Assembly (NCBI GenBank): GCA_031402515.1
Contig: JANNSK010000093.1
Span: 1 to 58,208, forward strand
Reading direction: 5' to 3'
DNA: 58,208 nucleotides
DNA from: Alphaproteobacteria bacterium
Lineage (GTDB): Bacteria > Pseudomonadota > Alphaproteobacteria > Rickettsiales > UBA3002
Positions 2,988 through 57,621 of the stretch are shown here, piece by piece. The translations under genes were made by a program, and so were the position numbers. Positions within the stretch are counted from its first letter, which is position 1; each line of letters opens with the position of its first letter. The notes beneath the pieces were generated by a model. That model was given only the letters and a program-made list of their open reading frames with translations. It ran no database searches and was not told the DNA's origin.

Positions 2988-3021
2988 ACGGCCCTTCTAA
3001 CAGCCATTTGGGCCGAGAAGT

Positions 3022-3039
3022 ATGACAATTTGATGAAGA
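3022..3039 (-). promoter_or_regulatory. PhoB/OmpR-type direct-repeat box TCTTCAT-CAAA-TTGTCAT
   Basis: 11-bp periodic half-sites, 34 nt before ATG 2987; 3018-3042 is identical to 4330-4354. Confidence 0.75.
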
Positions 3040-3073
3040 TTTTTGGTTAAACAATCGCCAAGCGGTGCTTCGT

Positions 3074-4300: not shown

Positions 4301-4333
4301 TCTCTTAGCTTAACGCACTGGATTATTAAAAGT

Positions 4334-4351
4334 ATGACAATTTGATGAAGA
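4334..4351 (-). promoter_or_regulatory. PhoB/OmpR-type box TCTTCAT-CAAA-TTGTCAT
   Basis: 33 nt before ATG 4300. Confidence 0.75.
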
Positions 4352-4385
4352 TTTCGCGGGCTCATGATTGAAAACCCACCATTTT

Positions 4386-6035
4386 TTAACGCACTTTGGG
4401 AGGTTTCAGCGGCGGGCGGCCGACCCCGTGCGGGCGGGTGCCGCGTGGGGTGTGGGATTCAATCGGCCCAGCGCCATGCTCAGGGAACGAACGCGGGCGT
4501 ATTTGGTTCCACTCGGCAAGATCCGGCATCGTCGCAATGGTCTCTTTCAGGGTCTCAAAAATTTTTGCTTCATCTGGTGGGCTGCCAAACCGGCGCTCAA
4601 TGGCCTGATTCATGAATACATCCAGCTTCGCTATCGAGGCCGATTCATAGCCCCGCATCAATTCTTCCGTCAATTTCAGATAGCCCTGGTCGCGCAGGCT
4701 TTGGAACGATGGCCAGTCTCGCGTTGCTGCCTGCCGTTTCATGGCAATCGACGATAATTCATTCGCATCCTGCCAGCGATTGCCTTTCATCAACGCATCC
4801 AGACGTTCTGGGATATTCCTGTACAGCAAAGTTTGCTTTGCCGCGTTTACTTCTTTGGAATCCCGCACAGCGCCTGCGGCTTGATAGGCAACTCCCGCAT
4901 CCTGTAATTTCTTGGCGGCATCCATTTGCGCGGCACCCTCCGCTGCCGCACTCAATGTTTCCGACGATAGGCCGGGAGTGCGGATCAAATCGTTCAGCGT
5001 GTCGAGGGATTTGCCGAAATGGCCCATCCGTCCTTTGGCCAGCCAGATACCATGGGTGACACTAAAATCCGGCATGGCGATGATATTTTCGCGAATGATT
5101 CCGAACAACGCATGGCTTGGCGTGGTTTCTGTTTGGCCTTCGTACTCCCACCCCCGCATCATGAGCGGTCTATGTTCAGCAAGGCGTTTGGCGACGAAAT
5201 CAGCGATACGCGTATCGGCGAAATGAGCCCGGGCGTCTTTGTCATCCGGCACCGATTCGTAGCCTTGCATCAAATCATGGATAAGCTGGAAATAGGCGTC
5301 CCGCCGCAGATTTTGAAAATCCGGATAGTGCTTGGCGCCGGAATTGCTATAGGCAACGTGCGAAAGCTCATTCCGTTCATCGAAATCCATCAGGCGGATG
5401 AGTTTATCTTCAAACATACGCCGCCATGCATCAACGCGGATGCTGTCGTTGAACCTGACCTGTGTTCGCGCCTCGGTCCGCACCGCATCCACCCGGTACT
5501 CCGCCGGATTCACAAACGGCTCTTTTGGTAGTGCGGATACGGTTTTTCTTACCGGCGCATCATCATCCGGATGGCTATGCGGAATGGCTGAGGGCCATGC
5601 ACGCCAACTGGCATCATGGGCCATCCATTGTGCCTTGCTCATCCGCCCGCCGCCGCTTTGCAACCCATCATGGACGTTTTTCTGCCAAAGCCGCGCACGC
5701 CCAACGTAAGCCTGCCATTCACTATTCAACTCCAGATAAGCAAGATATTTGGTGAATTTTGTATAATTGGGCCCGAAATCAGGGAAAATCCTTCCCGCTT
5801 CCATATCCTCGATCCATCCTCTGGTGATACCATCCAAGGGCGGGTTGGTTGGCGCATCCAAGGCTACCCGAATGGATTTCATCAATGCCCCGAAACGTCC
5901 GTCGAGTGGTTGATCCGCAATGATACCGTGGTTTGTCTGCCAGCGCGTTTTCGCCGCTGCATCGACATCCGGCAAAGGCGCCCTGCTTCTGCTTGCAGCA
6001 CTGCGATTGTTGATTGGTTTTGATTCTTCGCTCAT
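4386..6035 (-). CDS. orphan protein, 549 aa, with internal duplication and Pro/Arg tail
   Basis: NELS..PxFQxLR..YxxLxxxLMxGYES..IxxMPD occurs twice; ends TRPHGVGRPPLKPPKVR. Confidence 0.8.
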   Translation of the reverse strand: MSEESKPINNRSAASRSRAPLPDVDAAAKTRWQTNHGIIADQPLDGRFGALMKSIRVALDAPTNPPLDGITRGWIEDMEAGRIFPDFGPNYTKFTKYLAYLELNSEWQAYVGRARLWQKNVHDGLQSGGGRMSKAQWMAHDASWRAWPSAIPHSHPDDDAPVRKTVSALPKEPFVNPAEYRVDAVRTEARTQVRFNDSIRVDAWRRMFEDKLIRLMDFDERNELSHVAYSNSGAKHYPDFQNLRRDAYFQLIHDLMQGYESVPDDKDARAHFADTRIADFVAKRLAEHRPLMMRGWEYEGQTETTPSHALFGIIRENIIAMPDFSVTHGIWLAKGRMGHFGKSLDTLNDLIRTPGLSSETLSAAAEGAAQMDAAKKLQDAGVAYQAAGAVRDSKEVNAAKQTLLYRNIPERLDALMKGNRWQDANELSSIAMKRQAATRDWPSFQSLRDQGYLKLTEELMRGYESASIAKLDVFMNQAIERRFGSPPDEAKIFETLKETIATMPDLAEWNQIRPRSFPEHGAGPIESHTPRGTRPHGVGRPPLKPPKVR

Positions 6036-6069
6036 ATCCTATTCTTACTCGCCCCTTACACCGCTGTGT

Positions 6070-6087
6070 GTGACAATTTCATGACAA
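6070..6087 (-). promoter_or_regulatory. PhoB/OmpR-type box TTGTCAT-GAAA-TTGTCAC
   Basis: 34 nt before ATG 6035; possible third in-phase half-site at 6092. Confidence 0.75.
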
Positions 6088-6092
6088 ATGAG

Positions 6093-7556
6093 TTAACGGT
6101 GGGCACCGCCACGTATGGCGGTTGGGCGGCCGCGATGGCCATGCGGCCGTTCCGGGAGAGGCGGCTTTTGCTTTTCGGTAGTTTCAGGCAAAGTAGCGCC
6201 ATGCGGGACAACCGTTGCCGGAGCAATGGCTGTCTGGCCATTTCCCAAAGACTCGACCGGATATTTTTGTAAAGAGTCCAAAGTTGGGGTCAGAGAAAGA
6301 TCGCGTTTGGGCCATGGCGGAAGTAGCGATTCTGCCATTGCTGCTTTCGCATGCCAGCTATTGGGAGGAAGTTTATCGAATACCGCACGTTCAAAATAGC
6401 TTACTTTTGATGCTCCCTGTTTTATCTCTACGCGGTCGGCAATGCGAGAAAACAAGGCTTCTTCATTTTTGCTCAATGTCCGGTTATCCGGGGGCAGACT
6501 GCTTTCCCTGCTACCCGTATGCGCTACACCCGAAACCTGCAAAGTACCCAAAAAGTTTGCGATACTTATACCATCCCAGTATTCCCGTATGGCGTGGATG
6601 TATTTCATGCGTGTATCGATTGTTTCTACCAGATCCGCCCATAACCGATCCTCTGGGTTTGGCATCCAACGCTCGCCGCGTGCTTCCGTGTGTAGTTTAT
6701 CCAGCATCGCCTTCGCATAGCGTTTGGAAAACATGGCATGACGTGGGCGGACCAATGAACCAGTCTCCTCCCCCGTACGCCGGTAATGAATCATCAGATT
6801 TTCGTAATGCTCGAATTGTTTAGAATCACCGACAAAAATATGCTGCTTAATTTCATGCATTAATTCTATGGCTGGCAGCATATCACCGCTAAATATATGA
6901 CCATTTTTGTAAACGGAACCGGGTGATTTCTTGTAACGAAGTAATGCATAGGTGGTCAGAAATTCAGCGGGGTCCAGTGTTGCGTCACGCCATACCGTGA
7001 GCCTTTTGCGCCCATCTTCTGTTTGTATAAGTCTCCCGTAATCCAGCCCTTCTTGATTTTTCCGCGGAATGACTGTGCTAAGTTTTGTCTGACGATCGCG
7101 ATTTAACTCCAGGCGGCTCAAGCGTGCCTCCAATCCACCATGCGCCTTCAGTAAGGCCTCGCTCCGCACAGCATTGGCTTCCGGTTGATTCGTCCATTCA
7201 CCGGCCGTGTTGTGGAGACCTTCCATCGTCACCCGTTCGCGCGCAAGATCGCGCTCTGTACCACTTTTTGCCTGATCCATGATCGGCCAACTGAAGAGTC
7301 TCATGATCTGTTGATGCTGAAGCTTATCCGGCAATGTCTGACTGGCCGCATCAAACCATGCGGCGGTAGTCTCACGCGAAACACCCAGTTTCTCCGACAA
7401 GACGATGGACGAATGCGGCAATTTGATGGTCCCCGGCTTTTCTTTTGCCGCAATCGCGGCGAGTGGTTTGCTGATGGCATCGATCCAACGCTGTTTGGCG
7501 ATTTCGCGTGGACTTCGTACCACTTTTTTGGTGTTTGCTTCAGGCATAATTGTCAC
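6093..7556 (-). CDS. orphan protein, ~485 aa, possible N-terminal HTH, Pro/Arg/His tail
   Basis: LSEKLGVSRETTAAWF resembles an XRE-type HTH; AAGGAG RBS; 17 nt after the upstream stop (operon); start may be ATG 7547; ends ERPHGHRGRPTAIRGGAHR. Confidence 0.75.
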   Translation of the reverse strand: MTIMPEANTKKVVRSPREIAKQRWIDAISKPLAAIAAKEKPGTIKLPHSSIVLSEKLGVSRETTAAWFDAASQTLPDKLQHQQIMRLFSWPIMDQAKSGTERDLARERVTMEGLHNTAGEWTNQPEANAVRSEALLKAHGGLEARLSRLELNRDRQTKLSTVIPRKNQEGLDYGRLIQTEDGRKRLTVWRDATLDPAEFLTTYALLRYKKSPGSVYKNGHIFSGDMLPAIELMHEIKQHIFVGDSKQFEHYENLMIHYRRTGEETGSLVRPRHAMFSKRYAKAMLDKLHTEARGERWMPNPEDRLWADLVETIDTRMKYIHAIREYWDGISIANFLGTLQVSGVAHTGSRESSLPPDNRTLSKNEEALFSRIADRVEIKQGASKVSYFERAVFDKLPPNSWHAKAAMAESLLPPWPKRDLSLTPTLDSLQKYPVESLGNGQTAIAPATVVPHGATLPETTEKQKPPLPERPHGHRGRPTAIRGGAHR

Positions 7557-7573
7557 GCTCCTTCATCATGTTT

Positions 7574-8923
7574 TTAAGGTCTCAGCACTGGCCGCTGCAT
7601 ACGGCTGGTCGCCGGCCGCCCTTGTGGCGATGTGTGTGTTTGCGGTTTAGCCTCCACGCCATGCGGCTGGGGCGTCGGCAATGGAGTATGGGGTGCAGTT
7701 GATTCCATGGATTCAGAAGATGGCAAGGTAGAAAGAAAACTTGAACCACCGATGGCATCAAGTGCACGATGTTTTTCGAGTGCACGATGCAAGGTTTCAG
7801 TGCGCGCATAATCGTTCAAATCTTTCTGCGCTTTATCGAGCAGTGATTTGTAGTATTCGTAGCTTGGGGTTTTGCGCAACTCCAGTGACTGCATAAAAAG
7901 TATTTTCATGGATTCATTAAGTCTGAGCACTCCAGATTCAATTCCCGCAATGCTTCTCAAGTCGATAGGTTTACCACCCGACATGTCGCTCATTTTTTGT
8001 GCTAATTCACCTTGGGTGTGGATACCCTTAATGCGCCGCAATCCATTAAAAACATAAGCCAATCGTGTATTCGGCGTCTGTTTCTCAAGCCATGCAGGAT
8101 TCAATAACGTGGTGGCGAGCACGTTTTTTTGGTAGGCATCGCCCAGAATAAGGTTTTGTCGAGTCTCTGCTGCGGATGAGTCAAGGCCGGACTTTGGCTT
8201 TGCAGTGCTAGAAAACCCTGCGTTTTCTAAAGATCGCGGCTCTGCATCCGGATACGCGTAATACGCTTTTCGTAGCCATGGTCCATGCGCTTCATAAACT
8301 CCACCACGCTCCGCATTCAGCGCGCTTTCAAGTTCGTTAAACGGTAAACTTGTCGGCTTAATTCTAGATTGAGACTTCTCAATACCAAACACGTATGATC
8401 TGGAACGCCCGTCGTCACCAAGTAATTGACCGACCTCTTTCGCACTCATTCCCTGTGCTTTACGGAGACGCTCAAAATAGCGGCCGAACCATTCTTTTTG
8501 CGGATATTGACTGATTTCAGCCCATAACTTTTCGGGCGGCGGTAGCGGTGGCCGTGTATATTTCCCCGGATTTATTTCCCCATAATGTTCATAAGCCGTC
8601 TGAAATTGTGCTTTATATTGATTAAACGGGCTCTGATCTAAATTAAGCCCACGTACCCAAAGTTTAAATTCATAATTCGTGGGGTTATTGCCGGGCCTGA
8701 ACTTCTCGATCTGACTAACAAATGCCCCCGTTACCCCGAGTACTCTAGCAATATCGGTCTGCGGTAACGGCATGCCCACACGCGTGGAAGGCTGTAATTC
8801 CCGGATTCGTTTTAGCAGATACCCGAATTCTTTCCGCTTATCGCCTTGCGTAAAAGCAGCGACTTCTTTCGCCAGTTCTTCTGGCGCTGGCAGCGGTTTT
8901 GGTGGTGTATATTTTTCAGCCAT
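7574..8923 (-). CDS. triple XRE/Cro-type HTH repeat protein with Pro/Arg tail, 449 aa
   Basis: Three HTH-like units: QTDIARVLGVTGAFVSQIEK; MSAKEVGQLLG..SYVFGIEK; TQGELAQKM..SIAGIESG. Confidence 0.8.
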   Translation of the reverse strand: MAEKYTPPKPLPAPEELAKEVAAFTQGDKRKEFGYLLKRIRELQPSTRVGMPLPQTDIARVLGVTGAFVSQIEKFRPGNNPTNYEFKLWVRGLNLDQSPFNQYKAQFQTAYEHYGEINPGKYTRPPLPPPEKLWAEISQYPQKEWFGRYFERLRKAQGMSAKEVGQLLGDDGRSRSYVFGIEKSQSRIKPTSLPFNELESALNAERGGVYEAHGPWLRKAYYAYPDAEPRSLENAGFSSTAKPKSGLDSSAAETRQNLILGDAYQKNVLATTLLNPAWLEKQTPNTRLAYVFNGLRRIKGIHTQGELAQKMSDMSGGKPIDLRSIAGIESGVLRLNESMKILFMQSLELRKTPSYEYYKSLLDKAQKDLNDYARTETLHRALEKHRALDAIGGSSFLSTLPSSESMESTAPHTPLPTPQPHGVEAKPQTHTSPQGRPATSRMQRPVLRP

Positions 8924-23446: not shown

Positions 23447-25543
23447 TTAATGAATCGTTGAATTGCCGGGAAGCTGGACATCCGCGTGTTTGCGATCGCC
23501 GACGCTATCGGCCCAGCCCTGATTCTGCGCCGTTTCTTCTGGTGTGGTATGACGCACATGCATCGGCGGCGGGCCGTTATATTGCACCGTGGTCGCCTGC
23601 ACTTTGGTGCTCGGTGTCATATCGATTTTTGGGTTGAGGACGATAGTGGTTTTGGGCGTGCCGGGCGCAGCGGCAGGTTTTTTCGGTTTGTCGTCATCCT
23701 CGTCCTTGACGATTTTGCGGCCCTCGAAATACTTCGCCGGTTTGCTTTGAAGGTCAATGGCAAGTCCGCCGATTTCTTTCACGGATTTGCCGGCTTTGCC
23801 TAACTGCCATGAAGAAAGATTGTCGATGAGCCCGTAGATGGCCTTGTCCATTCTACCGTTCTCACCGGTTGATGGGCTGTCGTTCACCCGCAGACCGAAT
23901 TCATCCTTGGCGATGAAGTAAGGCGTATAAGACATCGCGGCATCGACATAGGTGCGCAGGAAATCTTCGCGACGCCACAGTTCTGGTGTGCCGCCGGGGC
24001 CAGCCATAATTTTCGACAGGCGGCTGCCAACGGGCAGCACCGCATCGATGGCATGGTTAAGTCCAGAGCCCAAAGTGAAGCACATCCAACCGAAGGGGCT
24101 CAATAGCTTGGAGGTGAGTGATGGAGAGTTCTCCCAGGAGAATAACCCCTTCTCCTTTAATGATTTGGGAAACGGCACTTTTTGGTCGCTGAAATGGATA
24201 AAGTCCGGACGCGCCCCATTATGCAGCCCACCGGTAGGCCGCAGCCCACGATTTGTTTTCGAGACACTGCCATACGCCTGACTGCCCGCCGTGCCCCCCT
24301 GCAATAAACCTTTGGGATGCGAGTCCCATGTGCCGACAGAACTTTGTCCTGGCTGCGCATTCTCCAGAATAAACTCCGAACGCCACTTGCTTTGCGGTGT
24401 GCGGGTGATCCAGAAGAACGGTACCGATGGCTGCATGAACAGGTTGGCCTTGATCGTGCTTTTGATGAGGTAACGGCCGATGGTGCTTAACCCATCGATC
24501 ACGCTGGCGATCGGGTTGCTTGGGATGTGGAAATCAAACGATACGCCGTGTTTGTAGGCATGATAGAGCCTGCGGCCGATGCCATCGTAAATCTCGCGAT
24601 ACATCAGCGTGAAGACGTTGTAGCCGACGAACCTGCCCTGCAGGTCGAGAAGTCCAACGAGCTGATGGTCGCCGACGATATCGCCCTTATCGTTGACGAT
24701 GTAGGAGCCGCCGTTCCTGTTGCGATCCGAGCTATAAGCGAACGTCGGAACGAATTTTGACAGCATGTTGCGCTGCCACCTTAATTGATAGACATAAGGC
24801 AGCGCCGCAGCCCAGTCTTCACCAGCGTTTTTGGTGACGACGCGCCAGCTGGCACGACCCACCGCATGCGCCCATTTGCCGAAATCAAAATGGCCCTTAT
24901 CGCGCGTGGTTGCATTACCATTTTTATCAATCCACCATGGTTGCGGCAGGTTGGGATCGAAGGCCTGAATCATGTTGCGTACCGCGCCGTCGCCCAGCGA
25001 CATCGCCGCGAAGTCATACGTCACCGCAACCACTTCTGCACCGAGGCTGCGCCCCATCTGCATGCCTGCAACATTATGATAATAATTCGTTGGGCGGAAT
25101 CGCGTGACCGTTTTCGCCCATTCGGGATTCATCCATTTGGCAACAGTTTCGATCGGCTTTCCGGCAACATGGTCGAAGACATTCGCAACATATTGCAGTG
25201 GCTTACTGCCTTTGCCGATGAATTTTTCTTTGCCCCAGATGAAGGTCGATGGGTCGTAACCGAATAGCTGATTGCTGGCGTAGCGCGTCGCGAAGGCAAA
25301 CGATAGCGCACCGAAGATGCCGCGCGAAATGGTGCGAATCGCCATCCGCCCCTGTGTGCTCGACGCCCAGTTTGGTTTGGCGTTATAGTCGGATAACACA
25401 TTGCGCCCGTAGAGATATTCCTCCTGCGCGCTCGGACCATCGACGCCGAAATACGGCTCGGCCTCATCCGCAGGTGCAGTCGTCTCATCCAGCGGCGGAA
25501 CGTCGCTTGGCGATTTCTTTTTCTCTGTGTCGTCGTCTGACAT
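23447..25543 (-). CDS. large orphan protein, 698 aa
   Basis: Long ORF; acidic N-terminus, aromatic/Gly-rich core, P/T-rich tail. Confidence 0.8.
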   Translation of the reverse strand: MSDDDTEKKKSPSDVPPLDETTAPADEAEPYFGVDGPSAQEEYLYGRNVLSDYNAKPNWASSTQGRMAIRTISRGIFGALSFAFATRYASNQLFGYDPSTFIWGKEKFIGKGSKPLQYVANVFDHVAGKPIETVAKWMNPEWAKTVTRFRPTNYYHNVAGMQMGRSLGAEVVAVTYDFAAMSLGDGAVRNMIQAFDPNLPQPWWIDKNGNATTRDKGHFDFGKWAHAVGRASWRVVTKNAGEDWAAALPYVYQLRWQRNMLSKFVPTFAYSSDRNRNGGSYIVNDKGDIVGDHQLVGLLDLQGRFVGYNVFTLMYREIYDGIGRRLYHAYKHGVSFDFHIPSNPIASVIDGLSTIGRYLIKSTIKANLFMQPSVPFFWITRTPQSKWRSEFILENAQPGQSSVGTWDSHPKGLLQGGTAGSQAYGSVSKTNRGLRPTGGLHNGARPDFIHFSDQKVPFPKSLKEKGLFSWENSPSLTSKLLSPFGWMCFTLGSGLNHAIDAVLPVGSRLSKIMAGPGGTPELWRREDFLRTYVDAAMSYTPYFIAKDEFGLRVNDSPSTGENGRMDKAIYGLIDNLSSWQLGKAGKSVKEIGGLAIDLQSKPAKYFEGRKIVKDEDDDKPKKPAAAPGTPKTTIVLNPKIDMTPSTKVQATTVQYNGPPPMHVRHTTPEETAQNQGWADSVGDRKHADVQLPGNSTIH

Positions 25544-25596
25544 TAAAAACTCACACTATTACAGGTTAATAGTACCACAAATCAGGTGATTCTGAT

Positions 25597-25698
25597 GTGA
25601 AGGTTTTGTGACAATAAGGAGAGTTTTGTGACGGTTTGATGACCAACTAAACCTCTGAACAGCCGAAATATTTCAGTTGTGTGAAGTTTGCATGACAG
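25597..25698 (-). promoter_or_regulatory. three boxes in the divergent intergenic region
   Basis: 25597-25614 TTGTCAC-AAAA-CCTTCAC; 25628-25645 TGGTCAT-CAAA-CCGTCAC; 25681-25698 CTGTCAT-GCAA-ACTTCAC. Confidence 0.72.
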
Positions 25699-25777
25699 CG
25701 GCTGTTTTTACTCGGGGATGTGGGCGATTTCCTGTAAAATCAGAACAGAGAAATTGCTAAGGAGACACCATAGCGAA

Positions 25778-28351
25778 ATGACAGGTCCTGCACCACCAGT
25801 TTCAACCGTCGTAAAACCCGGTAGCCGAGCGCTGCCGATTGTCGAATGGTTTTCAGAGACGGCCTATACGCCGCCCGGTGCGCATCGCTTGTTGACGGCA
25901 GCAGGACTCACCGCTGGACTGCTCATCGGCCGCGGCCTGATGGATGTGGTGACTGCGCGCAGTTCAAATAAAGAAAAACCACTCGAACGCGATCAAGTGC
26001 TGGCGCCGTTTACACCACTGCACGGGTTGATGCGCTACAATCCTTATTCCGATCGCACGCCGGATCGCTGGAAATCAGTTGTGGATAATCTGGCGCCGGT
26101 GATGCTGGGTGGTGTCGGCGCCTATCTCGGTAGTCGTCACTATTTTTATGGCAATGAATTGAAACTATGGGGAAATGGTGCGGCAAAAGCCTTTAACGCC
26201 ACGACAAAATCGGTCAGCGCGAAATTTAAAACTGGCACACTCGCGCTCGATGAAGCCGACCACATGACGGGACTTGTCCAATCGGAAACCATGAACAAAC
26301 CGGCTGCATTTTCGTTCATCTGGGGAAGTGACACGGGCTTCCATTTGCCCGGTGCCTGGTGGGTATTTGGTACCGGCATGAGCGCCGAGCGTTTCGCCAC
26401 CGGTGTCGGCCGCAAACCGTGGATTCCGTTCGCCGGCTGGTTTAACCGGCTGATGGGCAATCATTCCTCCGGTATGCTGTCGTTGCATGGCGCGATGCGC
26501 GATACGGCAAAATGGATGGAAGCGAACGTCATGAAATTTAGCCATCCGGAGAAATGGCTAACGTCGGAAGCGCTGATGAAGCGCGTCGAAGCGGGCTTAC
26601 AAGTATTCCGCAAAGTGACGCCGGAACAGAAGCAAAAACTGATGAAGGCATTCGAGGAGCATCTGCAGAAAGCGCATGCGCTCAGGGAAAAGTTAAAAGC
26701 CGCAGGAAAATCCGAAGAAGAAATTTCTAAAAAAGTGTATGAGTTTATCGGCGGCACTGGCGAATATAAAGATGGTGTTGGCCTGTTCGGCGTGGCCTAC
26801 GAACGCATGCTGATTCAAAACGGCTTCGATCTCACCAAAGTGAAGCTCGGCGATTTCGGTCCATTCACCTTCGTCGCGCGATTGCTCGGTGGCGGTAAAG
26901 GTCCGCGTGCGGTCGAGGCTGCTTATGCCAAACACCTCAAGGAAGCGCACGGGATTGAATATGGCGAGAGCTACCTGCATGATGTCACGCTGAAGAAAAC
27001 CGCCTACTATACGGGATTCGCCGGACTTACTGCCGCAGGTATTTACGCCGGTGATAAAATCGTTACCCAGTTGAATAAAAAAGTCGATGCGGCGGGCAAT
27101 CCGGATACGCAAAATGCCGAACCGGAAAAACAAAAGGGCAAAGGCATCAACGGATGGGTAAACGGCAAACCGCTCGATACGCTGCAATGGGCCAGCCGCA
27201 TGTTGATTACACCGCCTTCTATGCATCGATTCATGAACGCGGCATTTCTCTCTGGTACGTTATACGGCAGTGCTAAATTTGCTAACGTGCTTGCCGGTCG
27301 CAAACTGCAATTGCTGCGCAGCGGCGCGCTACCGAATTCGCTCGTCTCCAAGGAACAGGTATGGGGCATATTCAAGCCGCTGCACGGTATTCTTGAATAT
27401 ACCCCAGGCAGCAGCCTTTTAAAGGACCGCTGGCGGCAGGCGGCGCATGCGTTGTTTCCAGTGAGTGTGGGTATGTTCGGTACGTTCACCGGTAGCCACA
27501 TGTTCTTCCGCGACCGCATCAACTCACTCAAAAAACCGGAAACGCTGGAAGACTACGTCGATAAAATTTCACTCGAGCAGTCGAAATTCTACGCGGGCGC
27601 GACGGCATTCACCTCGATTTTCAATACCGGCTCCGGCATTCATTTGCTGCCGATTTTCAGCTATACCGGCAACCTCAATAACCGCTATCTTGCCGCAAGC
27701 GGCCAGCAGGTGGCGTTACCGGGGCTTGGTAAATGGTGGTCGGGCAATCCAGGATTGCATCCGTGGGGCGTGAAACAGACTTTAGGCCATTTATGTAGCT
27801 ATCTCACCTATAATCCCGATAAAAATCCGCATGAAGTGCCGCTACTGGTACATTCGGTGATCGCCAAACTCTATCCCGATTTGCCGGAAGACAAGCTACT
27901 TGTCGCCAAACGTAAAATCATCGATCGCCTGATGGGCATTCGGAACGAATATTTCGAAGGCGATACGATCCCTGAAAAAAATCACAAAGTCCTGCACGAG
28001 CGCATCCATCAACTCACGGGCGGCCAGGGTTTTGAAGAATTGCTGATGCATGCGGGGCTGAATCCTGCTGAGGCCAACCTTGCCCATAATGGGATGCAAG
28101 GCAAAATCGCCAACTGGACCGGCTCTGGCCGTACAGTTGATCGTTTGCAAAATGAATATCGCAGCAAATTTGCCGAGCGCATGGGCCATCGCGGACGCCC
28201 TTTCACTGCCCAGCACGCAACTCCGTTCGCTTCAGGCAAGAAAGCTGAAATTCCGCGCGGTATGTCTGGCAACGGTGTACCTGGTAATAAAGTCAGCGTC
28301 GTCGCCGCCGATCGCCTACAACCATCGCCTGGGCAGTTCCAAACGCATTAG
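25778..28351 (+). CDS. large orphan protein (~857 aa) of two homologous halves with Gly-rich hydrophobic helices
   Basis: PPxxHR..FxPLHGxxxYxPxS..DRW occurs twice; AAGGAG before ATG 25778. Confidence 0.82.
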   Translation: MTGPAPPVSTVVKPGSRALPIVEWFSETAYTPPGAHRLLTAAGLTAGLLIGRGLMDVVTARSSNKEKPLERDQVLAPFTPLHGLMRYNPYSDRTPDRWKSVVDNLAPVMLGGVGAYLGSRHYFYGNELKLWGNGAAKAFNATTKSVSAKFKTGTLALDEADHMTGLVQSETMNKPAAFSFIWGSDTGFHLPGAWWVFGTGMSAERFATGVGRKPWIPFAGWFNRLMGNHSSGMLSLHGAMRDTAKWMEANVMKFSHPEKWLTSEALMKRVEAGLQVFRKVTPEQKQKLMKAFEEHLQKAHALREKLKAAGKSEEEISKKVYEFIGGTGEYKDGVGLFGVAYERMLIQNGFDLTKVKLGDFGPFTFVARLLGGGKGPRAVEAAYAKHLKEAHGIEYGESYLHDVTLKKTAYYTGFAGLTAAGIYAGDKIVTQLNKKVDAAGNPDTQNAEPEKQKGKGINGWVNGKPLDTLQWASRMLITPPSMHRFMNAAFLSGTLYGSAKFANVLAGRKLQLLRSGALPNSLVSKEQVWGIFKPLHGILEYTPGSSLLKDRWRQAAHALFPVSVGMFGTFTGSHMFFRDRINSLKKPETLEDYVDKISLEQSKFYAGATAFTSIFNTGSGIHLLPIFSYTGNLNNRYLAASGQQVALPGLGKWWSGNPGLHPWGVKQTLGHLCSYLTYNPDKNPHEVPLLVHSVIAKLYPDLPEDKLLVAKRKIIDRLMGIRNEYFEGDTIPEKNHKVLHERIHQLTGGQGFEELLMHAGLNPAEANLAHNGMQGKIANWTGSGRTVDRLQNEYRSKFAERMGHRGRPFTAQHATPFASGKKAEIPRGMSGNGVPGNKVSVVAADRLQPSPGQFQTH

Positions 28352-28366
28352 CCTTCATTTATTTTA

Positions 28367-28440
28367 TCATTCTGGCGAAAGCAGGAATCTCCTGCAATAA
28401 TGGTTTTTTTAAGGAGATCCCTGCTTTCGCAGGGATGACA
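28367..28440. repeat. REP/RPE-like palindrome between convergent orphans
   Basis: TCATTCTGGCGAAAGCAGGAATCTCC ... GGAGATCCCTGCTTTCGCAGGGATGACA. Confidence 0.75.
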
Positions 28441-28448
28441 AATGTAAG

Positions 28449-29721
28449 TTACATCAACGCATTCACCGACATCTGCTTACCTTGCGGCAAACCAGCTTGT
28501 GCCTGCACCGTCTTCACCGAAGCGACTGCTAGTCGATGATTCGGAATATCCGAATCAATCAACGAAGCGAAGCTGGTGCTTGCTTCGATGGGCGAGGCAT
28601 CGGTGCGGCCAGCTCGCACTCGGGTCTGCCGGTCGATGTCGTCGAGTACCTGCTCATTTGTATAGTGTGACTTTATGCCAACAACGCCATAGTCGATATG
28701 GGTGCCGCCCGCTTTTGCGAATTTGGTCAACGCATCGATTAATTTAATGGCCGCCTTCTCTGATTCTTTTGCTGTATCCCAAGAATGAATGGTAAATGGC
28801 ACGGTGAGTTGCACCATTTCACTCCCCCTTACCGGTATTTCGGCAGTCATTTCGAGATGTTTATCCGCATACTGGCGGAAATACCATCGTACTTGCCGTT
28901 CGTTGGTTTTTACCGGCCCAATGATTGTACCAAGCGGCTCTTCAAGCGCTTTCCACAACGCCCAGATAATTTGCCCAGCGTCCTGCTTATTGCTTTCCAG
29001 TTTGGGTACAGGATCGACTTTCGGTTTTTTATGCAGTCTACCAATCAGGACGGCGATGGTGTTACGCTCGCTGGGGGTTAGTCGTTCTGAAGGACGAATA
29101 AAACTAGTGTTATGGTCAGACGATACACTGAGTTGACTGGTACCTTCATAATGCATCCAGACTCCCTCAGACTTAATCTCATCCATGGGTATCATTTGCC
29201 CGGGCCCTTTTGGATGATGCACGAGACTGACCGGATTTCCCCATTGCTTCATCAACTCTTCGACTTTTCGCTGCTGTGGCGACGCGATATGGTGCTCACG
29301 TAATGCGTTATATTTTTCCCTGAGATACACAATGACGGGTTCCGTGCCGTCCGATGATGCGGAAACGAAAGGAACAAAATTGTAATCGGGCTGGATCGCA
29401 CGAATGTCCGCAATGAGTTGTCCGATTTTTTCGGCATACATGCGGGCGGGATATTCAGCGCCCACTTTAACCGTCACCGCCTCTCCCAACCCTTCGGATA
29501 GGCTAACGGTAAAAAAATAGTCCGTCGTTTTTCCCAATCCGGAATGTCCCTCAATCGGGCTTAACGTGTCCCTCAATCGGGCTTAACGTAAAGGCAGGCC
29601 CGTTGGTTTTAGCAGAAGTCGACCCTTTCGGCAGCGCGTCTTTTGCAGATTTGCTGCCCGATTCTCTTCCTTTCGCGCCTGCCGCTGGCCTAACACCGAC
29701 TCTGCTAACACTTCCAACCAT
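28449..29721 (-). pseudogene. orphan gene (416 aa if repaired) frameshifted by a 22-bp tandem duplication
   Basis: AGGAG-ATG at 29721 opens MVGSVSRVGVRP..AFTLSPIEGH; removing one copy of 29545-29588 joins it in frame to the 375-aa ORF. Confidence 0.8.
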
Positions 29722-29734
29722 GATATTCTCCTGA

Positions 29735-30484
29735 TTATGCTTTTGCGGTTACTGTTGTTGGCATTCGCTGCGGCACATTGGCCTGAGCCTGCGACGTTTC
29801 CACCGAGGCCACCGTCAATTGATAATTCGAGATATTCGAATCTATCAGAGCAGCAAAATTCTTTTTTTGTTCGGTAGGTGAAGCATCCAAAGATTGCCCG
29901 TGTTTTTCGCGCCATGCTTTCAGTTCAGGTGAAATTCTACCTAAGCGAATTTCTTCGACAGTTTCATCGAGTATCCACATGACCTCAAAACCATCTTCGC
30001 CGCTAAAGGATGGAACGCGGATATGTTCGCCGCCCGGTTTGCGCTGGGCATCACGAATATACTCAACGTTTTCAGCAATAACTTGTGCCATGGCATTGGT
30101 TATTGGTCCACCCACGCGCACGAGGCTGGGTGTCAATGAAGGTTCAGAGCGTATATCAGCACGTGGCGTCACCGTCACCATACCACCCATGGGGCGAAAC
30201 GCGAAGTTTGGTCCGCCCACGACATTGACATCGGCGTGCATGATTCCTGCTGCATCTTCACCATAAAATGTGGCCGGAAAGCGCTTGGCGCTTTCGAGCA
30301 TAAACGCCACATCGTGTTTTTGGTTGGCATCTAAATTAGACGATGTATCAAGCAACTTCTGTTCGATGGCCGTTAGCCCGCGATTGTTACCTACCTGTTT
30401 CAACGCATCCATGTTCGAGGCGCCGCGTCTGCCTGCTTTTGCAACGGGACCTCGTCCACCCATTTTGCCAATGCCACCACCCAT
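29735..30484 (-). CDS. orphan protein, 249 aa, sharing N- and C-terminal modules with the downstream gene
   Basis: AAGGA RBS; C-terminal DASP..FAALIDSNISNYQLTVASVETSQAQA. Confidence 0.78.
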   Translation of the reverse strand: MGGGIGKMGGRGPVAKAGRRGASNMDALKQVGNNRGLTAIEQKLLDTSSNLDANQKHDVAFMLESAKRFPATFYGEDAAGIMHADVNVVGGPNFAFRPMGGMVTVTPRADIRSEPSLTPSLVRVGGPITNAMAQVIAENVEYIRDAQRKPGGEHIRVPSFSGEDGFEVMWILDETVEEIRLGRISPELKAWREKHGQSLDASPTEQKKNFAALIDSNISNYQLTVASVETSQAQANVPQRMPTTVTAKA

Positions 30485-30555
30485 GTTGATTCCTTAATAA
30501 TATGAAGGTTGGTTCCTAATGGAACCCGCTTTAGCAGACTCTTTTATTAATGTGT

Positions 30556-30573
30556 ATGAAGATTTTATGACAA
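30556..30573 (-). promoter_or_regulatory. PhoB/OmpR-type box TTGTCAT-AAAA-TCTTCAT
   Basis: 71 nt before ATG 30484. Confidence 0.72.
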
Positions 30574-30817: not shown

Positions 30818-31843
30818 ATGACGTCAGCACTTCCTGACTTTTCAATGCGCGAGCTGATTGATGCTGGCGTTCATTTCGGCCACAAAACCAAACGTTGGAA
30901 CCCGCGCATGGCGCCGTTTATCTACGGCACGCGCAATGACATCCATATCATCGACCTCCAGCAAACCGTACCCATGCTGCACCGCGCCTTGACCGCCGTG
31001 CGCAATACGGTGGCTAAAAACGGTCGTATCCTGTTCGTCGGTACCAAACGCCAAGCGTCGGACGAAATCGCCGAGTCGGCAAAACGTTGCGGACAATATT
31101 ATGTCAACAACCGTTGGCTGGGCGGGATGCTCACCAACTGGTCAACGATCCAAAACTCGATCCGCCAGTTACGCAAATACGAGGAAATCATCGCCGAAGG
31201 CGAAACCGGCCTCAAAAAGAAAGAGTTGCTGAAAATCCAGCGCTATCGCGATAAGCTCGACCGTTCACTCGGCGGGATCAGGGATATGGGTGGCAAGCCG
31301 GACTTGCTGTTCGTCATCGACACCAACCGCGAGGACATCGCGGTGAAGGAAGCCCGCAAGTTGGGAATCCCCATCGTCGCCATCATCGACACCAACTGCA
31401 CGGTGGATGGCATCGATTTCCCAATTCCGGGTAACGACGACGCCACCCGCGCCATCAAGCTCTATTGCAAACTGATTTCCGACGCGGCGCTTTCCGGCCT
31501 GCGCGAAAATCTCAACGTGTCCGAGAAGGATTTCGCCAAGGACAAACCTGCTGAGCACGTCGAAGGCGAAACCGCAGAAGGTATGACTGAGCGCCAGAAG
31601 GAAGAAGAATTGGCCCGCCAATCGCGTCGTGCGGCACCTTCGGATAAACGTCCAGGCCGTGGCGGCAGCAGACAGGCAAGACCAGCTAAAGCCGCGCCTG
31701 CAACTTCGACCAAAAAAGAAGCTTTTGCCGAGGAAGCTAAAAAGGCTGCCAAGGCGAAGCAGGACGAGGAAGCTGCCGAGCCCACAACAGATGCCGAGGG
31801 CGAAAGCAAAGAAAAGAAGCCCCGCGCTAAAAAGACAGCTTAA
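30818..31843 (+). CDS. rpsB: 30S ribosomal protein S2 with long charged C-terminal extension
   Basis: [23 protein letters not shown]. Confidence 0.98.
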
Positions 31844-31852
31844 TTAGGGATT

Positions 31853-31910
31853 AGTTGTTGGTTGTTAGTTGTTGGTTCTCCAACAACCAATACCCAACAA
31901 CCAACAACGA
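31853..31910. repeat. inverted heptamer array (GTTGTTG/CAACAAC)
   Basis: agttgttggttgttagttgttggtt ... caacaaccaatacccaacaaccaacaac. Confidence 0.75.
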
Positions 31911-33398: not shown

Positions 33399-33470
33399 GT
33401 GACAGGTGACAGGTGACAGGTGACAAGTGGCAGACATTCTTTGTCACTTGCCATCTGTCACCTGTCACCA
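33399..33470. repeat. inverted heptamer array (GTGACAG)n/(CTGTCAC)n
   Basis: gtgacaggtgacaggtgacaggtgacaagtggcag ... ttgtcacttgccatctgtcacctgtcacc. Confidence 0.85.
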
Positions 33471-38609: not shown

Positions 38610-38691
38610 AAGTGACAGGTGGCAGGTGACAAGTGACAGGTGTCACGGCTGTTTTTTTACTTGTCACCTGCCACCTGTCACTTGCCACTTT
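38610..38691. repeat. inverted heptamer array (GTGACAG family)
   Basis: Same unit as 33399-33470; minimal copy at 34332-34346. Confidence 0.85.
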
Positions 38692-49311: not shown

Positions 49312-49599
49312 ATGGTTGAAATCCATCAGGCAAATCCAGTACTGCAGCGCGATTTGTGGCTGAAACGCCTGCGCTATCGTAGCTGGCACCGCGGCTGTAA
49401 GGAAACCGACCTTGTACTCGGCACCTTCTGCGACCAGCATATCGAGCGCTTAACCGACGCCGACTTGCGCCGATATGAGGCCTTGCTGGATGAAGAAGAC
49501 GCCGATATATGGAGCTGGATCACCGGAAAATCTTCCTGCCCCAAGCCAGAATTTTTGCCCTTGCTGGATGAATTGAAAACGCTTCAGCTGCACGCGTAA
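49312..49599 (+). CDS. sdhE: succinate dehydrogenase assembly factor 2
   Basis: RLRYRSWHRGCKETDLVLG. Confidence 0.93.
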   Translation: MVEIHQANPVLQRDLWLKRLRYRSWHRGCKETDLVLGTFCDQHIERLTDADLRRYEALLDEEDADIWSWITGKSSCPKPEFLPLLDELKTLQLHA

Positions 49600-52500
49600 T
49601 GAAAATTCCTCCACAGATTGCAGGGCTAAGGCCCGGCACCCACACACACATGACACATGTGCCGTTCACGGCGCAGGCCTATGCACTGGCTGAGCTCACA
49701 ACAACAAGCCTTCGCTCCATCGTTCATATCGTCCCACAAGATAAGGACATCGTAGCGCTTGCTGAGTTAATCCGGTTTTTAGCACCAGATATTTCGGTGC
49801 TTCATCTGCCCGCATGGGATACGCTACCTTACGACCGTATCTCGCCCGCGAGTTCTATACTTTCGCAGCGGCTGTCAACTTTAGGGTTATTAGCAAGCGA
49901 CGCGCGCCCAAAAACTTACATCCTATTAACTACACTCAATGCTGCCAGCCAGAAACTACCGCCGCGCGTGATGCTGGCCACGGCGAATTTCTCTATTACT
50001 AAAGGCAAAAAACTAAATCGCGATGCGCTCATTAGCTTCCTTGAGGGCAACGGCTATCATCGTGCATCGAAAGTCATGGAAGCGGGTGAATATGCCGTGC
50101 GCGGTTCACTGATTGACCTTTATCCGGCAGGTTCGGATGAAGCCGTGCGTATCGATTTATTCAGCGATGAGGTGGAATCGCTGAAAAACGTCGATCCCCT
50201 GACTCAACTTTCCGGCACATCCGTCGCCTCGTTAACGCTGCGGCCGGTGAGCGAGGCGCTACTTAACCCCGAAACCATCGCCCAATTTCGTACACGTTAT
50301 CGTGAGTTATTCGGCGCGATAACGAAGGAAGACCCGCTCTATGAATCCATTTCCGCCGGACGCACTTATGCGGGGATGGAACATTGGCTTCCCCTCTTCT
50401 ATTCACATCTCGACACGCTCGCCGATTATACGCCGGAGGCACTGCTCACAACCGATTATCGTATCGACGCGCTATATAAAGAACGGGCCACCGATATCGC
50501 CGACTATTACGATGCGCGGGTGAAGCATCAACACGCGAAAGATGCCGCATACCACCCTGTGCCGCCAGAGCAGCTGTTTTTATCGCCCAAAAGTTTTGCC
50601 GCGATATGGAATGACCACGTACAAATCACGTTCACGCCATTCGCCGGCGACGGGGTGTCGCTCGATATCCGCAGCAGCCCACAATTGTTTCATCGCGGCA
50701 AGGATGAGCATCCGGCGCAAATCGCTACTAATTTTATCGCGCAGGCGACCAAACCGGTGATACTTGCTGCTGCCTCGCTGGGCAGCGCCGAACGTATCCG
50801 CAAAATGCTGCATCTGGGCGATATTGAACCAAGCGCCTATTTCGCCGATGCGTTAAAAAACAAGGTGTCGCTTGCCATTCTTCCCATCGAACAAGGATTC
50901 GAAACGGATGCGTTTTTACTCCTCACCGAGCAGGATATGTTCGGTGAACGCATCATCCGCACCGCAAAGAAAAAACGCAAATCCGAAGCGTTTTTGCAGG
51001 AGGCCGCGAGTTTCCTTGAGGGCGAACTCATCGTCCACCGCGAGCATGGTATCGGTAAGTTCGAAGGCCTCATCACCCTTGATGTGAACAACACGCGGCA
51101 TGATTGCCTGAAACTCATCTATGACGGCGGCGATAAGTTATTCCTGCCCGTTGAGAATATCGACCTGGTCAGCCGCTATGGCGCGGCGGAAGAACACGTG
51201 CCGCTCGATAAATTGGGCGGCGTGGCGTGGCAAAAACGCAAATCATCCCTCAAAAAACGCCTCAAGATGGCGGCCGAGGCGCTACTCAAAGTTGCCGCTG
51301 AACGCGCGGCCAGAATAGCGCCAATTATGCACGCCGAGTCAGGTGCTTATGATGAGTTCTGCGCCCGCTTCCCCTATACGGAAACCGACGATCAAATGCA
51401 GGCCATTGAGGATGTGAAGGCCGACCTTGCCAGCGGTCATGTGATGGATAGGCTCATTTGCGGTGACGTAGGCTTCGGCAAAACCGAAGTCGCCATGCGC
51501 GCCGCGTTCATCGCCGCCGCTGCCGGGCATCAAGTCGCCATCATTGCACCGACCACCCTCCTCGCCCGCCAGCATTTCCACACCTTTTCCGCGCGCTTCA
51601 CCGGATTAAACTTTACTGTGCGTATGCTCTCGCGCCTGACTTTGTCGAAAGACGCCGACGATACCAAAAAACGCCTGCCGGAGGGTAAGGTCGATATCGT
51701 CATCGGCACCCATGCGTTGCTCGCTGCCGGCGTGCAATACAAACAACTCGGACTGCTGATTGTCGATGAAGAATAGCATTTTGGCGTGGCGCAGAAGGAA
51801 AAATTAAAACAACTCAAAAGCGATGTACATGTGCTGACGTTATCGGCCACGCCGATTCCGCGCACCTTGCAATTGTCGCTTTCCGGCGTGCGCGAATTAT
51901 CGCTCATTACCACGCCGCCCATCGACCGCCTTGCGGTCCGCACCTACATCATGCCTTACGATCCGGTGATTATCCGCGAGGCGATTTTGCGCGAGCACCA
52001 TCGCGGCGGAAAAACTTTCTTCGTCACCCCGCGCGTAAAATACATGGCAGAAATCCAAAGCAAAATCGCCGAACTTGTACCCGAAGTTAAAATCGCCGTC
52101 GCCCACGGGCAAATGGCCGCCGGCACGCTCGATAAAACCATGAATGCGTTTTACGACGGGAAATATGATGTGCTGCTATCGACCGCCATCATCGAATCCG
52201 GCATCGACATTCCCACCGCCAACACGATTGTTATCGACCGGCCGCAGCTTTTCGGCCTTGCCCAATTATACCAGTTGCGCGGGCGCGTTGGCCGCAGCAA
52301 GACGCGCGCCTATGCCTATTTCACCCTGCCCCATCACAAACTACTGAGTCGCGATGCCGAACGACGGCTGGAAGTCATGCAACAACTCGATAGTTTGGGC
52401 GCCGGATTCCAACTCGCCAGCCACGATATGGACATTCGCGGCTTCGGCAACCTGCTGGGCGAAGAGCAATCCGGCCACATCAAGGAAGTCGGCATCGAAT

Positions 52501-53051
52501 TGTATCAAACCATGCTGGAGGAAGCGATTGCCGACCTCAAACAGCGCAAAGCTATTGGCAATGCGGCCGAATCCGCCGAGAGCTGGAGCCCCCAAATCAA
52601 CCTCGGCATGTCGGTGCTCATCCCCGAATCCTATATCGAGGATTTACCGCTGCGCCTGAGCCTCTATCGCCGCGCCGCCGGGCTTGAACATGAACAAGAC
52701 ATCGAGAGTTTTGCCGCCGAACTGACCGACCGTTTCGGTACCCCTCCGGTCGAGGTCGAGCACCTGCTTTCCGTATTAAATATCAAAATTCTCTGCAAAC
52801 GCGCAGGCATTGCCCGTATGGATGTCGGGCCGAAAGGCGTCGTATTATCCTTCCGTGACAATAAGTTCGCCGCCCCAGATGCCCTGATTGCCTATATTTC
52901 CCGCCATCCGGCCCGTATCAAGCTCCGCGCCGACCAGACATTATTCATCGCTGCCGAAACCGAGGCGGATGAGGCCCGGTTAAAGACCGTCACTACGGTG
53001 GCCAACGAAATCGCAGGCCTCATCCCCCCATCACGATCGCAAGCTGCTTAA
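49599..53051 (+). pseudogene. mfd: transcription-repair coupling factor interrupted by one in-frame TAG
   Basis: Both ORFs are in one frame; DEE*HFGV at 51774-51776 where DEEQ is expected. Confidence 0.88.
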
Positions 53052-54573: not shown

Positions 54574-56574
54574 ATGAGCGACCTTTTCAGTAAGTCATCC
54601 GCAGCCCGCAAATCCGAAGCCAGCGGCTATTCGGCCAAGCATATCGAAGTCCTCGAGGGGCTGGAGCCGGTGCGCCGCCGCCCCGGCATGTATATCGGCG
54701 GTAACGACGAAAACGCCATGCACCACCTCATCCATGAGGTGTTCGATAACGCGATGGACGAGGCTGTTGCAGGGCATGCCAGCTTCATCGAGGTCGAGCT
54801 TGCCGGCAGCAACACCGTCACTGTGCGCGATAACGGACGCGGCATTCCCATCGACCCCCATCCAAAATTTCCTAAAAAATCAGCGCTTGAAGTGATTATG
54901 ACCACGCTGCATGCGGGCGGAAAATTCAACGATAAAGTCTATCACACGGCGGGCGGCCTTCACGGGGTTGGGATTTCCGTAGTCAATGCGTTGGCCGAGC
55001 ATCTCGAAGTCGAAGTCGCCCGCGACCAGCAGCTTTACAAACAAAACTACTCGCGTGGACTTCCGCAAGATAAGCTCAAAAAAATCGGCAGCGTCAAAAA
55101 CCGTCGCGGCACCTCAGTCACCTTCCGCCCGGATATCGAAATTTTCGGCAACAAAGCCAAATTTCGTCCGGAAAAAGTTTACAAACTCATCCGTGCCAAG
55201 GCGTATCTTTTCCGTGGCGTCGAAATCCGCTGGAAGTGCGACCCAGATTTATTGCCCGAAGGCGCGCTGACGCCTGCATCTGAGACCATCCATTTCCCCG
55301 GCGGACTGGCGGATTTCCTCATCATGGAAATCGGTGCGCGTCCACTCGCCACCACGCAAAATTTCAGTGGTGTGGCCGATATTGGTGAAAACCGTGGTCG
55401 CGTCGAGTGGGCAGTCGCCTGGCCGCGCGACGAGGAAGACGGGCATTATTCACTGTTCTGCAATACCATTCCGACGCCGGATGGTGGTACGCACGAGCAG
55501 GGTCTGCGCGCCGCGTTGACCAAAGGATTGCGCGCGTTCGGCGAGATGTCCAAAAACAAAAAAGCTGCCGCCATCACCGCCGACGATGTGATGGAAGGCG
55601 CCGTAGTAATTCTCTCACTATTCCTCAAAGACCCGCAATTCCAGGGCCAAACAAAAGACAGGCTGATGTCGAGTGAGGCGGTACGCCTCGTCGAAAATGC
55701 GCTGCGCGATCCGTTCGATCATTTTCTTTCTGGCGATATGGAATTGGGTAACTCGCTGCTCAACCACATCATTTACCGCGCGGAAGAACGGCTGCGTCGC
55801 CGACAGGAAAAAAATACGAAGCGCCAGAATGTTACCTCGCGCCTACGCCTGCCCGGCAAGCTCGCCGATTGCACGCGCAGCACGCCGGAGGGCACCGAGC
55901 TGTTCCTCGTCGAAGGCGATTCGGCGGGCGGTTCAGCCAAGCAGGCGCGCATCCGCGAAACGCAGGCGGTGCTGCCACTGCGCGGAAAAATCCTCAATGT
56001 CGCCTCCGCTTCGCTCGATAAAATACGCGCCAACCAAGAGATTTCCGATCTCATGCAGGCGATGGGCGTCTCGACCGGCAGCCAGTTCGATATCAAAAAC
56101 CTGCGCTATGAGAAAATCGTGATTATGACCGACGCTGACGTGGACGGCGCCCATATCGCCTCACTGCTCATGACGTTCTTCTATCAGGAAATGCCGGACC
56201 TCATCCGCAAAGGCCATTTATACTTGGCCCAGCCACCCCTCTTCCGGATCACCGCCGGTAACGTCACCTATTACGCGCAAACGGATGTCGAAAAGAACGC
56301 GCTGGTCGAGCAGCTCTCGGGCAAGCATAAAAGCCGCATCGATATCGGGCGCTTTAAAGGCTTGGGCGAAATGACGGCGCCGCAGCTTAAAGAAACCACG
56401 ATGGACCCCAAAAAACGCACCTTGCTCAGGGTGGAGATTGGCGAATCGGAAATCGACGAAACCGCCGAGCGCGTCCATCAGCTAATGGGTAAAAAGCCTG
56501 AATTACGATTCAAATTCATCCGCGAACAGACCGAACTTTACGGTGAAAAATTTAGGGAAGCGCTGGATGTTTAA
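54574..56574 (+). CDS. parE: DNA topoisomerase IV subunit B
   Basis: LEPVRRRPGMYIG, DNAMDEAVAG, EGDSAGGSAKQAR, RFKGLGEM; no GyrB insert. Confidence 0.93.
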   Translation: MSDLFSKSSAARKSEASGYSAKHIEVLEGLEPVRRRPGMYIGGNDENAMHHLIHEVFDNAMDEAVAGHASFIEVELAGSNTVTVRDNGRGIPIDPHPKFPKKSALEVIMTTLHAGGKFNDKVYHTAGGLHGVGISVVNALAEHLEVEVARDQQLYKQNYSRGLPQDKLKKIGSVKNRRGTSVTFRPDIEIFGNKAKFRPEKVYKLIRAKAYLFRGVEIRWKCDPDLLPEGALTPASETIHFPGGLADFLIMEIGARPLATTQNFSGVADIGENRGRVEWAVAWPRDEEDGHYSLFCNTIPTPDGGTHEQGLRAALTKGLRAFGEMSKNKKAAAITADDVMEGAVVILSLFLKDPQFQGQTKDRLMSSEAVRLVENALRDPFDHFLSGDMELGNSLLNHIIYRAEERLRRRQEKNTKRQNVTSRLRLPGKLADCTRSTPEGTELFLVEGDSAGGSAKQARIRETQAVLPLRGKILNVASASLDKIRANQEISDLMQAMGVSTGSQFDIKNLRYEKIVIMTDADVDGAHIASLLMTFFYQEMPDLIRKGHLYLAQPPLFRITAGNVTYYAQTDVEKNALVEQLSGKHKSRIDIGRFKGLGEMTAPQLKETTMDPKKRTLLRVEIGESEIDETAERVHQLMGKKPELRFKFIREQTELYGEKFREALDV

Positions 56575-57620: not shown

Positions 57621-57621
57621 T

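Follow-up and report, generated by a model that had tools for sequence, protein, structure and literature searches.

The locus studied here raises the question of whether two neighbouring genes, A and B, whose products end alike and look different in between, carry a C-terminal export tag on exchangeable cargo or are plain paralogs whose ends have changed more slowly than their middles. The genes lie in a window of 58,208 nt (the whole stretch of DNA that was analysed), and the features of the locus are collected in Table 1. The genome appears to belong to a basal, Mitibacteraceae-like member of Rickettsiales, a family placement inferred from relatives of the left flanking protein p887; seven of these relatives are named, among them UBA6189 and a 'Rickettsiales bacterium'. 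UBA6189 is listed under Mitibacteraceae in 10.1101/2021.08.31.458344, in which the family is described as basal, equipped both with a type IV secretion system (T4SS) of the rvh kind and with flagella, and lacking known effectors.

Table 1. Features of the A/B locus (positions in the window).
Feature	Position	Strand	Description
p887	25688..28351	+	left flank; orphan conserved across the family, immediately precedes rpsB in relatives
Hairpin	28352..28448	.	inverted repeated elements between convergent B and p887
Gene B, main open frame	28449..29576	-	375 codons; ORFan
Gene B, C-tail	28458..28601	-	48 aa, B-ORF residues 326-373; common to A and B
22-nt tandem duplication	29545..29589	.	exact; shifts the gene B frame; polymorphic between runs
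Gene B, 5' piece	29551..29721	-	true ATG (29721) and basic N-terminus; stop after 56 codons
Gene A	29735..30484	-	249 aa; intact ORFan; no cysteine, signal peptide or membrane helix
Gene A, C-tail	29744..29887	-	48 aa, residues 200-247; common to A and B
-10-like element	30530..30536	-	GCTA; starts 20 nt past the box
PhoB-type box	30556..30573	-	direct repeat; two 7-nt half sites and a 4-nt A-rich spacer
rpsB	30818..31843	+	right flank

The gene pair and its frameshift

The distance between p887 and rpsB is 2466 nt in this genome vs. 165-1003 nt in relatives (10 of the 10 with both genes in the locus, 20 loci having been fetched), and neither A nor B was present in any of the 20 fetched loci. 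The pair is an insertion before rpsB. Homolog searches limited to subjects of 0.55-1.75 times the query length returned each protein itself only, and no convincing homolog was seen in 40 relatives, where the best outside matches reached E values of 0.006 and 0.09. A search of 1.84 billion representatives with B as query returned B, A and one protein of 69-aa repeats (P0003), which was rejected as an artefact of its repeats; an Atlas search for the two proteins gave no usable match, and no Pfam (E 0.1), NCBIfam, PHROG or PDB match was found for either. Judged by these searches, A and B are both ORFans.

Between the box and the hairpin, A and B are the sole genes. The stop codon of A is followed after 13 nt, within which a ribosome-binding site lies, by the ATG of B, and the box stands 89 nt from the ATG of A, in agreement with an earlier sequence-only reading of this DNA, which had proposed that the two genes form an operon behind a box. 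The hairpin (-40.5 kcal/mol, z -7.7) is likely the terminator; a part of it (28408-28442) is found again in many unrelated contigs.

The same reading had treated B as one intact gene, overlooking a frameshift. The ATG of B and its main open frame are out of register with each other; between them lies a 22-nt unit duplicated exactly in tandem, and the ATG frame ends after 56 residues, so that gene B is broken in this assembly. The four sequencing runs all come from freshwater sediment and from one study, with X1 possibly the source. Contigs from runs X1 and X2 contain both copies of the 22-nt unit, and one X3 contig (depth 4.3) lacks 22 nt and is otherwise identical; part of the population thus carries a broken B. 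A sequencing artefact as the cause of the duplication was rejected because two runs contain it, although all runs belong to one study and X1 may be the source. By itself, the pair is a modest object: two ORFans, one of them broken.

Several other features of the window were recorded. To the left, p698 and p887 (23447-28351) are divergent conserved orphans, with boxes between both in most of the relatives' loci, and many of their orthologs carry a terminal ANDN motif together with an SF/SW..R motif. The transcription-repair coupling factor mfd (49599-53051) is present as two adjoining ORFs of 725 and 421 aa, either a split gene or an assembly error. Short tandem repeats with a 7-nt unit, in inverted pairs, occur between housekeeping genes at 31851-31908, 33399-33469 and 38612-38690.

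A shared tail and dissimilar middles

The resemblance of the two C-termini was confirmed: the tails are identical at 27 of 48 residues (E 1e-12, pairwise), and their alignment score of 125 was reached by 0 of 3000 shuffles (shuffle mean 22). Between the tails, dN is 0.29 and dS about 3, and the same codon is used at 11 of the 27 identical residues, which marks the tail as an old element whose constraint acts on the protein, and not as a recent copy. By these substitution rates, the tail is under purifying selection, and it offers a short, selected element that is directly testable.

The N-termini present a fainter picture. Both peptides cited in the sequence-only reading are present in the DNA, and they resemble each other weakly (local p 0.054, global p 0.006) yet specifically, since the A-B score of 33 exceeds the maximum of 29 for A against 1539 other N-termini of the genome, in comparison windows that were the analyst's choice and were set to end at a shared DAL. 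The architecture of conserved ends proposed earlier thus holds for the ends, with purifying selection acting on them, and fails for B as a continuous protein, its N-terminus and main ORF being in different frames.

For the middles, the earlier statement that the cores are not visibly similar survived with a reservation: no significant similarity was found (local p 0.11; global p 0.02-0.08 by residue shuffles and 0.12-0.20 by block shuffles, with the N-termini removed), and faint collinear patches remain between A 60-99 and B-ORF 33-70 and between A 149-180 and B-ORF 288-318. The tail similarity begins abruptly at a DASP motif; an alignment anchored upstream of the tail gave p 0.30, and the body comparison of A and B, part of a finer test of six tail-sharing pairs, gave p 0.17. 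The two proteins differ in length by about 170 residues, and single-sequence AlphaFold models of A and B were unusable (pLDDT 36 and 34).

A family of tails was sought well beyond the pair. The sequence-only reading had inferred a polymorphic effector family with a third type of C-terminal delivery module, and had named among its checks a profile of that module run against the genome and its relatives, with occurrence nowhere else as one refuting outcome. The tail search of the genome itself matched A and B alone, and the profile run against 300 genomes of the order gave 11 matches at E 0.01-0.05, about the number expected by chance. Four of the 11 were inspected: one (L089) lies near a C-terminus and was unconvincing, and the others are internal or cut by a stop. 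A metagenome scan returned a single match (50% over 24 residues), which was rejected on account of its position in the N-terminal part of a protein. With no convincing carrier beyond A and B in the genome, in the 300 genomes of the order or in the metagenomes, the tail is a two-gene tail and not a widespread third module, which is the outcome that the sequence-only reading had set as refuting its family.

Searches for a broader tail motif within the genome either failed or left A and B out. Motif discovery by EM drifted to Pro/Ala composition, a seeded matrix collapsed to three members, and scanning every tail for gapped patterns yielded no specific one. Gibbs sampling of the tails of a tandem orphan array on contig C102 reached a score of 139 vs. 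up to 124 in shuffles, A and B not being included, and motifs learned from other orphans placed A and B at ranks 950 and 523, then 949 and 969, of 1541. The pattern [RHK][FYL]A is present in 14 of 33 tails of one class vs. 111 of 1506 others (p 6e-8; best of 8 shuffles 4e-7), its residue groups having been picked after the tails were seen and the class of 33 having been defined by N-terminal composition; it occurs in B and not in A. Among openly accessible papers, none was found that deals with tails of this kind or, for this group, with a set of orphans behind a PhoB box.

A rival to the modular account makes A and B plain tandem paralogs: their middles would have diverged past recognition and undergone one large indel while the ends changed slowly, any export route being compatible with it. 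Homology is seen at either end, with the order kept, the collinear patches and the lower global p values fit such a history, and the saturation of synonymous sites in the tail implies that the split is old; against this stand the abrupt start at DASP, the length gap and the fact that no test of the middles is clearly significant. The remainder of the genome contains examples of both processes. Among 158 box-led or orphan proteins compared (box-led meaning preceded by a box of the type found before A), 26 pairs align and three share a tail alone according to BLAST. In the clearest graft, two box-led genes on different contigs, C114:40286-41404 (L048, with a DUF84/NTPase body) and C51:4152-5645 (L100, a NUDIX protein), share a 65-aa tail (58%) on unrelated bodies (p 0.68). 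Because this tail sits on two different enzyme folds, tail grafting does occur in the genome, which speaks against the paralog account. Of the five tail-sharing pairs tested besides A/B, however, four pairs of neighbours, from C79 and C102, have homologous, alignable bodies (0 of 300 shuffles), and plain divergence therefore stays a live account of A and B. By these alignments, paralogs that diverge fast while their tails change slowly are no rarer than grafts. Overall, we regard the paralog account as a serious one, a shade short of even odds. The idea of swappable cargo is thus borne out in one case elsewhere in the genome, by a tail on different folds; a tail family was not found, and the middles of A and B themselves are only unrelated-looking.

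The PhoB-type box and its cohort

The box upstream of A is an 18-nt direct repeat that scores 27.4 bits with a matrix trained without the site of A. By the analyst's own gene calls, the matrix finds 175 loci, 168 of them intergenic, and it gave 0 matches in three shuffles of intergenic DNA. In Caulobacter, the PhoB ChIP motif is described as a pair of YGTCAYR-type repeats set apart by a 4-nt spacer rich in A (10.1101/741363), and the layout of the box here is the same. The 20-nt spacing from the box to GCTA is the modal one, with 43 GCTA/GGTA/GTTA matches at this distance among 111 box-led genes and 10 more at 19 nt; a fixed spacing to a -10-like element places the box in overlap with the -35 position, as is the case for a Pho box. 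A scan for the sigma-70 consensus gave nothing above chance.

Exact sites number 12-112 in all 36 genomes of the family, where control patterns occur 0-2 times, and the genomes that lack PhoB (9 of 61) have 0-4 sites each; eight PhoB-positive genomes of the order, however, also have four sites or fewer. A true PhoB scores above the cut-off in this genome, a PhoR-like kinase gene is present below the cut-off, and pstCAB is present. A weak site of 13.4 bits stands after phoR; from there to pstC is about 1.85 kb, a stretch that includes small genes. For pstS, the upstream region extends past the contig end. PhoB likely activates the A-B operon by way of the box before A. In the window (56571-58208) and in C30:17437-24041, pstS was seen apart from phoR-pstCAB, and the small genes that separate phoR from pstC follow the weak box as an insertion.

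The genes led by this box have properties in common. In loci that were hand-picked for their orphans, a box stands before 39 of the 83 genes without a Pfam family and before 7 of the 62 with one; of 20 box genes drawn randomly from the 72 remaining, 17 are Pfam-less, one encodes ankyrin repeats and two are housekeeping genes, and among the window genes without a box (not a random sample) 4 of 26 have no Pfam family. By crude thresholds, 1 of the 86 box-led proteins has a signal-peptide-like stretch and 4 have a membrane helix; among the 1273 others, the numbers are 313 and 275. Box-led proteins are hydrophilic with disordered ends, and many are encoded in tandem arrays. Judged by such sequence traits, the box thus marks a cohort of some 170 promoters of mostly Pfam-less, signal-peptide-free proteins with features of secreted proteins, to which the A/B pair belongs.

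Several members of the cohort and their surroundings were noted individually. The array at C102:3-29808 (L041, L042) consists of 22 consecutive genes on the same strand, 20 of which were scanned and have no Pfam family; most have a basic Pro/Gly/Thr-rich N-terminus, 7 of the 22 have a box of their own, and neighbours share different segments in a mosaic fashion. Tandem orphans with a basic Pro-rich tail, mostly boxed, are found in the window at 1392-8923 (-) and at C79:21356-29069 and C98:9866-13423, and their bodies include asparaginase-like and HTH domains. A box-led ankyrin-repeat protein (C18:3354-4241, L071) is of a kind typical of effectors directed at eukaryotes; the lineage is described as having few such proteins.

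The cohort bears on a further alternative, that A and B are not secreted at all and serve as cytoplasmic phosphate-starvation proteins, with the tail as a docking site or a degradation tag. The match of the box to the PhoB motif agrees with such a role, as does the position of A and B outside a T4SS substrate filter (see below), and the vir genes that were inspected have no same-strand box. A phosphate-starvation role leaves unexplained why more than 100 unrelated, lineage-specific proteins are arranged in tandem arrays with rapid gain and loss, and why enzyme folds acquired disordered tails; we therefore consider it unlikely. On contig C94, a strong box at 9227 (-) separates a RidA-like gene from a divergent run and is oriented away from the vir genes; the run next to it was read as virB2-virB4-virB6-virB8, of which VirB6 alone was confirmed by search.

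Export route and known systems

We favour the reading that A and B are substrates of the rvh T4SS with the C-tail as a predicted export tag, at a probability of about 0.5. The genome contains rvh-type genes for VirD4, four VirB6, VirB8 and VirB9, and A and B have neither a signal peptide nor a membrane helix (maximum 19-residue hydropathy 0.83 and 0.92). In Rickettsia, the effectors RalF and RARP-2 are reported to bind RvhD4 by their C-tails (PMC11077975), and most T4SS signals are characterized in a general account as short and hard to predict (PMC5675462). A filter presented for Anaplasma effectors asks that the total hydropathy lie below -200 and that the final 25 residues be hydrophilic (PMC3225360); A and the B ORF did not pass it, with totals of -93 and -137 on a measure that depends on length, and their last 25 residues have a hydropathy of -5.8 (A) and +5.4 (B) and a charge of +1 and +2, respectively. 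A T6SS sheath gene was not found in the genome.

Export by a type I secretion system (T1SS), with the 48-aa tail as its signal, would draw on the HlyD-type gene of the genome, on the absence of cysteine and on LDAVTSIF contents of 60% and 64% in the last 50 residues. T1SS signals are described as comprising about 60 C-terminal residues and as being used without a consensus by the Ank proteins of Orientia, in an account that also treats composition by itself as insufficient (PMC4315096). A and B, however, have no RTX repeats, a pI of 6.9 and basic rather than acidic tails (8.4, 10.8); the eight RTX proteins of the genome have 64-74% LDAVTSIF and 2-10% KHPMWC vs. 14-16% KHPMWC in A/B, and the box cohort has a median LDAVTSIF content of 50%, below the 54% of other genes. 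T1SS export thus agrees with the composition in part, and we consider it improbable. Least probable of all is flagellar export by the basic Gly/Pro-rich N-terminus, with the C-tail serving another job: a single flagellar FlhA (split over two contigs) is present, and the N-terminal composition signal trained on the C102 array is strong and ranks A 60 and B 191 of 1541, but conservation is much stronger in the C-tail than at the N-terminus, an N-terminus of this type is missing from most box-led orphans, and neither a second FlhA/SctV nor an injectisome export gate was found in the genome.

Under the rvh reading, a tandem duplication would have given rise to the two genes, with the tail and N-terminus kept and the middle replaced or altered past recognition. 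Phosphorylated PhoB would bind the box and activate the A-B operon along with well over 100 other promoters; the proteins would fold in the cytoplasm, where RvhD4 or an adaptor may read the tail, and the middles would act in a neighbouring cell, either a prey bacterium or a protist. Some cells would be losing or silencing B, which is expected of a weapon that turns over fast. More tentatively still, and with rather less than even likelihood, Mitibacteraceae-like Rickettsiales may hold a hidden arsenal of at least 100 rvh substrates per genome, with several families of short C-terminal export tags grafted on new cargo under PhoB control, that attacks neighbours at phosphate depletion, A and B being one recent cassette pair and B being toggled by the 22-nt repeat. 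Cargo of the rvh system in basal, apparently free-living Rickettsiales would bear on the way in which dependence on hosts arose within the order, and the combined box and tail signature yields a list of about 100 candidates here, with similar lists to be drawn in 36 relatives.

Polymorphic toxins combine a variable C-terminal toxin domain with a conserved N-terminal carrier. Compared with this layout, as outlined in PMC3482391, the conserved part of A and B is the C-terminus, no toxin domain was matched, and the locus has no adjacent immunity gene and no orphan tip cassettes between the box and the hairpin. Because neither a toxin domain nor an immunity gene was found, A and B form no polymorphic toxin system.

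Closer likenesses exist in systems with a portable terminal module on varied cargo, as described for terminal reassortment (Stavrinides, Ma, Guttman 2006, as described in PMC5675462) and the Bartonella Beps; the NUDIX/DUF84 pair behaves in this way and A/B may do so. Unlike in those systems, A and B have no BID domain (no Pfam at E 0.1) and a charge of only +1 and +2 in the last 25 residues, their 48-aa tail is private to two genes, several tail families coexist in the genome, and both ends are kept. X-Tfe proteins, as presented in PMC8740702, resemble A and B in pairing a variable body with a conserved C-terminal part in a genome with VirD4, and an antibacterial use of rvh has been proposed for basal Rickettsiales (10.1101/2021.08.31.458344). 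The XVIPCD is about 120 aa in length vs. 48 aa for the A/B tail, and it was matched neither in A or B nor in the genome at E 0.1; the pair has no recognisable toxin domain and no upstream immunity gene, A lying directly behind the promoter and having itself neither a signal peptide nor a lipobox-like stretch. RalF and RARP-2 belong to the same secretion system family, with the C-tail as the proposed RvhD4 contact (PMC11077975), but no sequence similarity to them was found and A and B come from a free-living-type lineage.

In its regulation, the cohort is similar to the Legionella PmrA and CpxR regulons, in which, as summarised in PMC6989116, a winged-helix response regulator acts before many scattered, unrelated effector-like genes. 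Those regulons comprise about 40 and 30 genes vs. about 170 sites here, the regulator here resembles PhoB itself and, unlike in Legionella, the inspected vir genes lack a same-strand box. The Caulobacter Pho regulon (10.1101/741363) has the same repeat pattern, and PhoB, a PhoR-like kinase and pstCAB are encoded here too; its targets differ from those of this genome, which are mostly orphans and not phosphate uptake genes, with a weak site before pstC. Finally, the lpl clusters of Staphylococcus are described as tandem paralogs reshuffled by recombination, with parts of different histories (PMC2568036); in those clusters, conservation lies in the middle and variation at the ends, the reverse of A and B.
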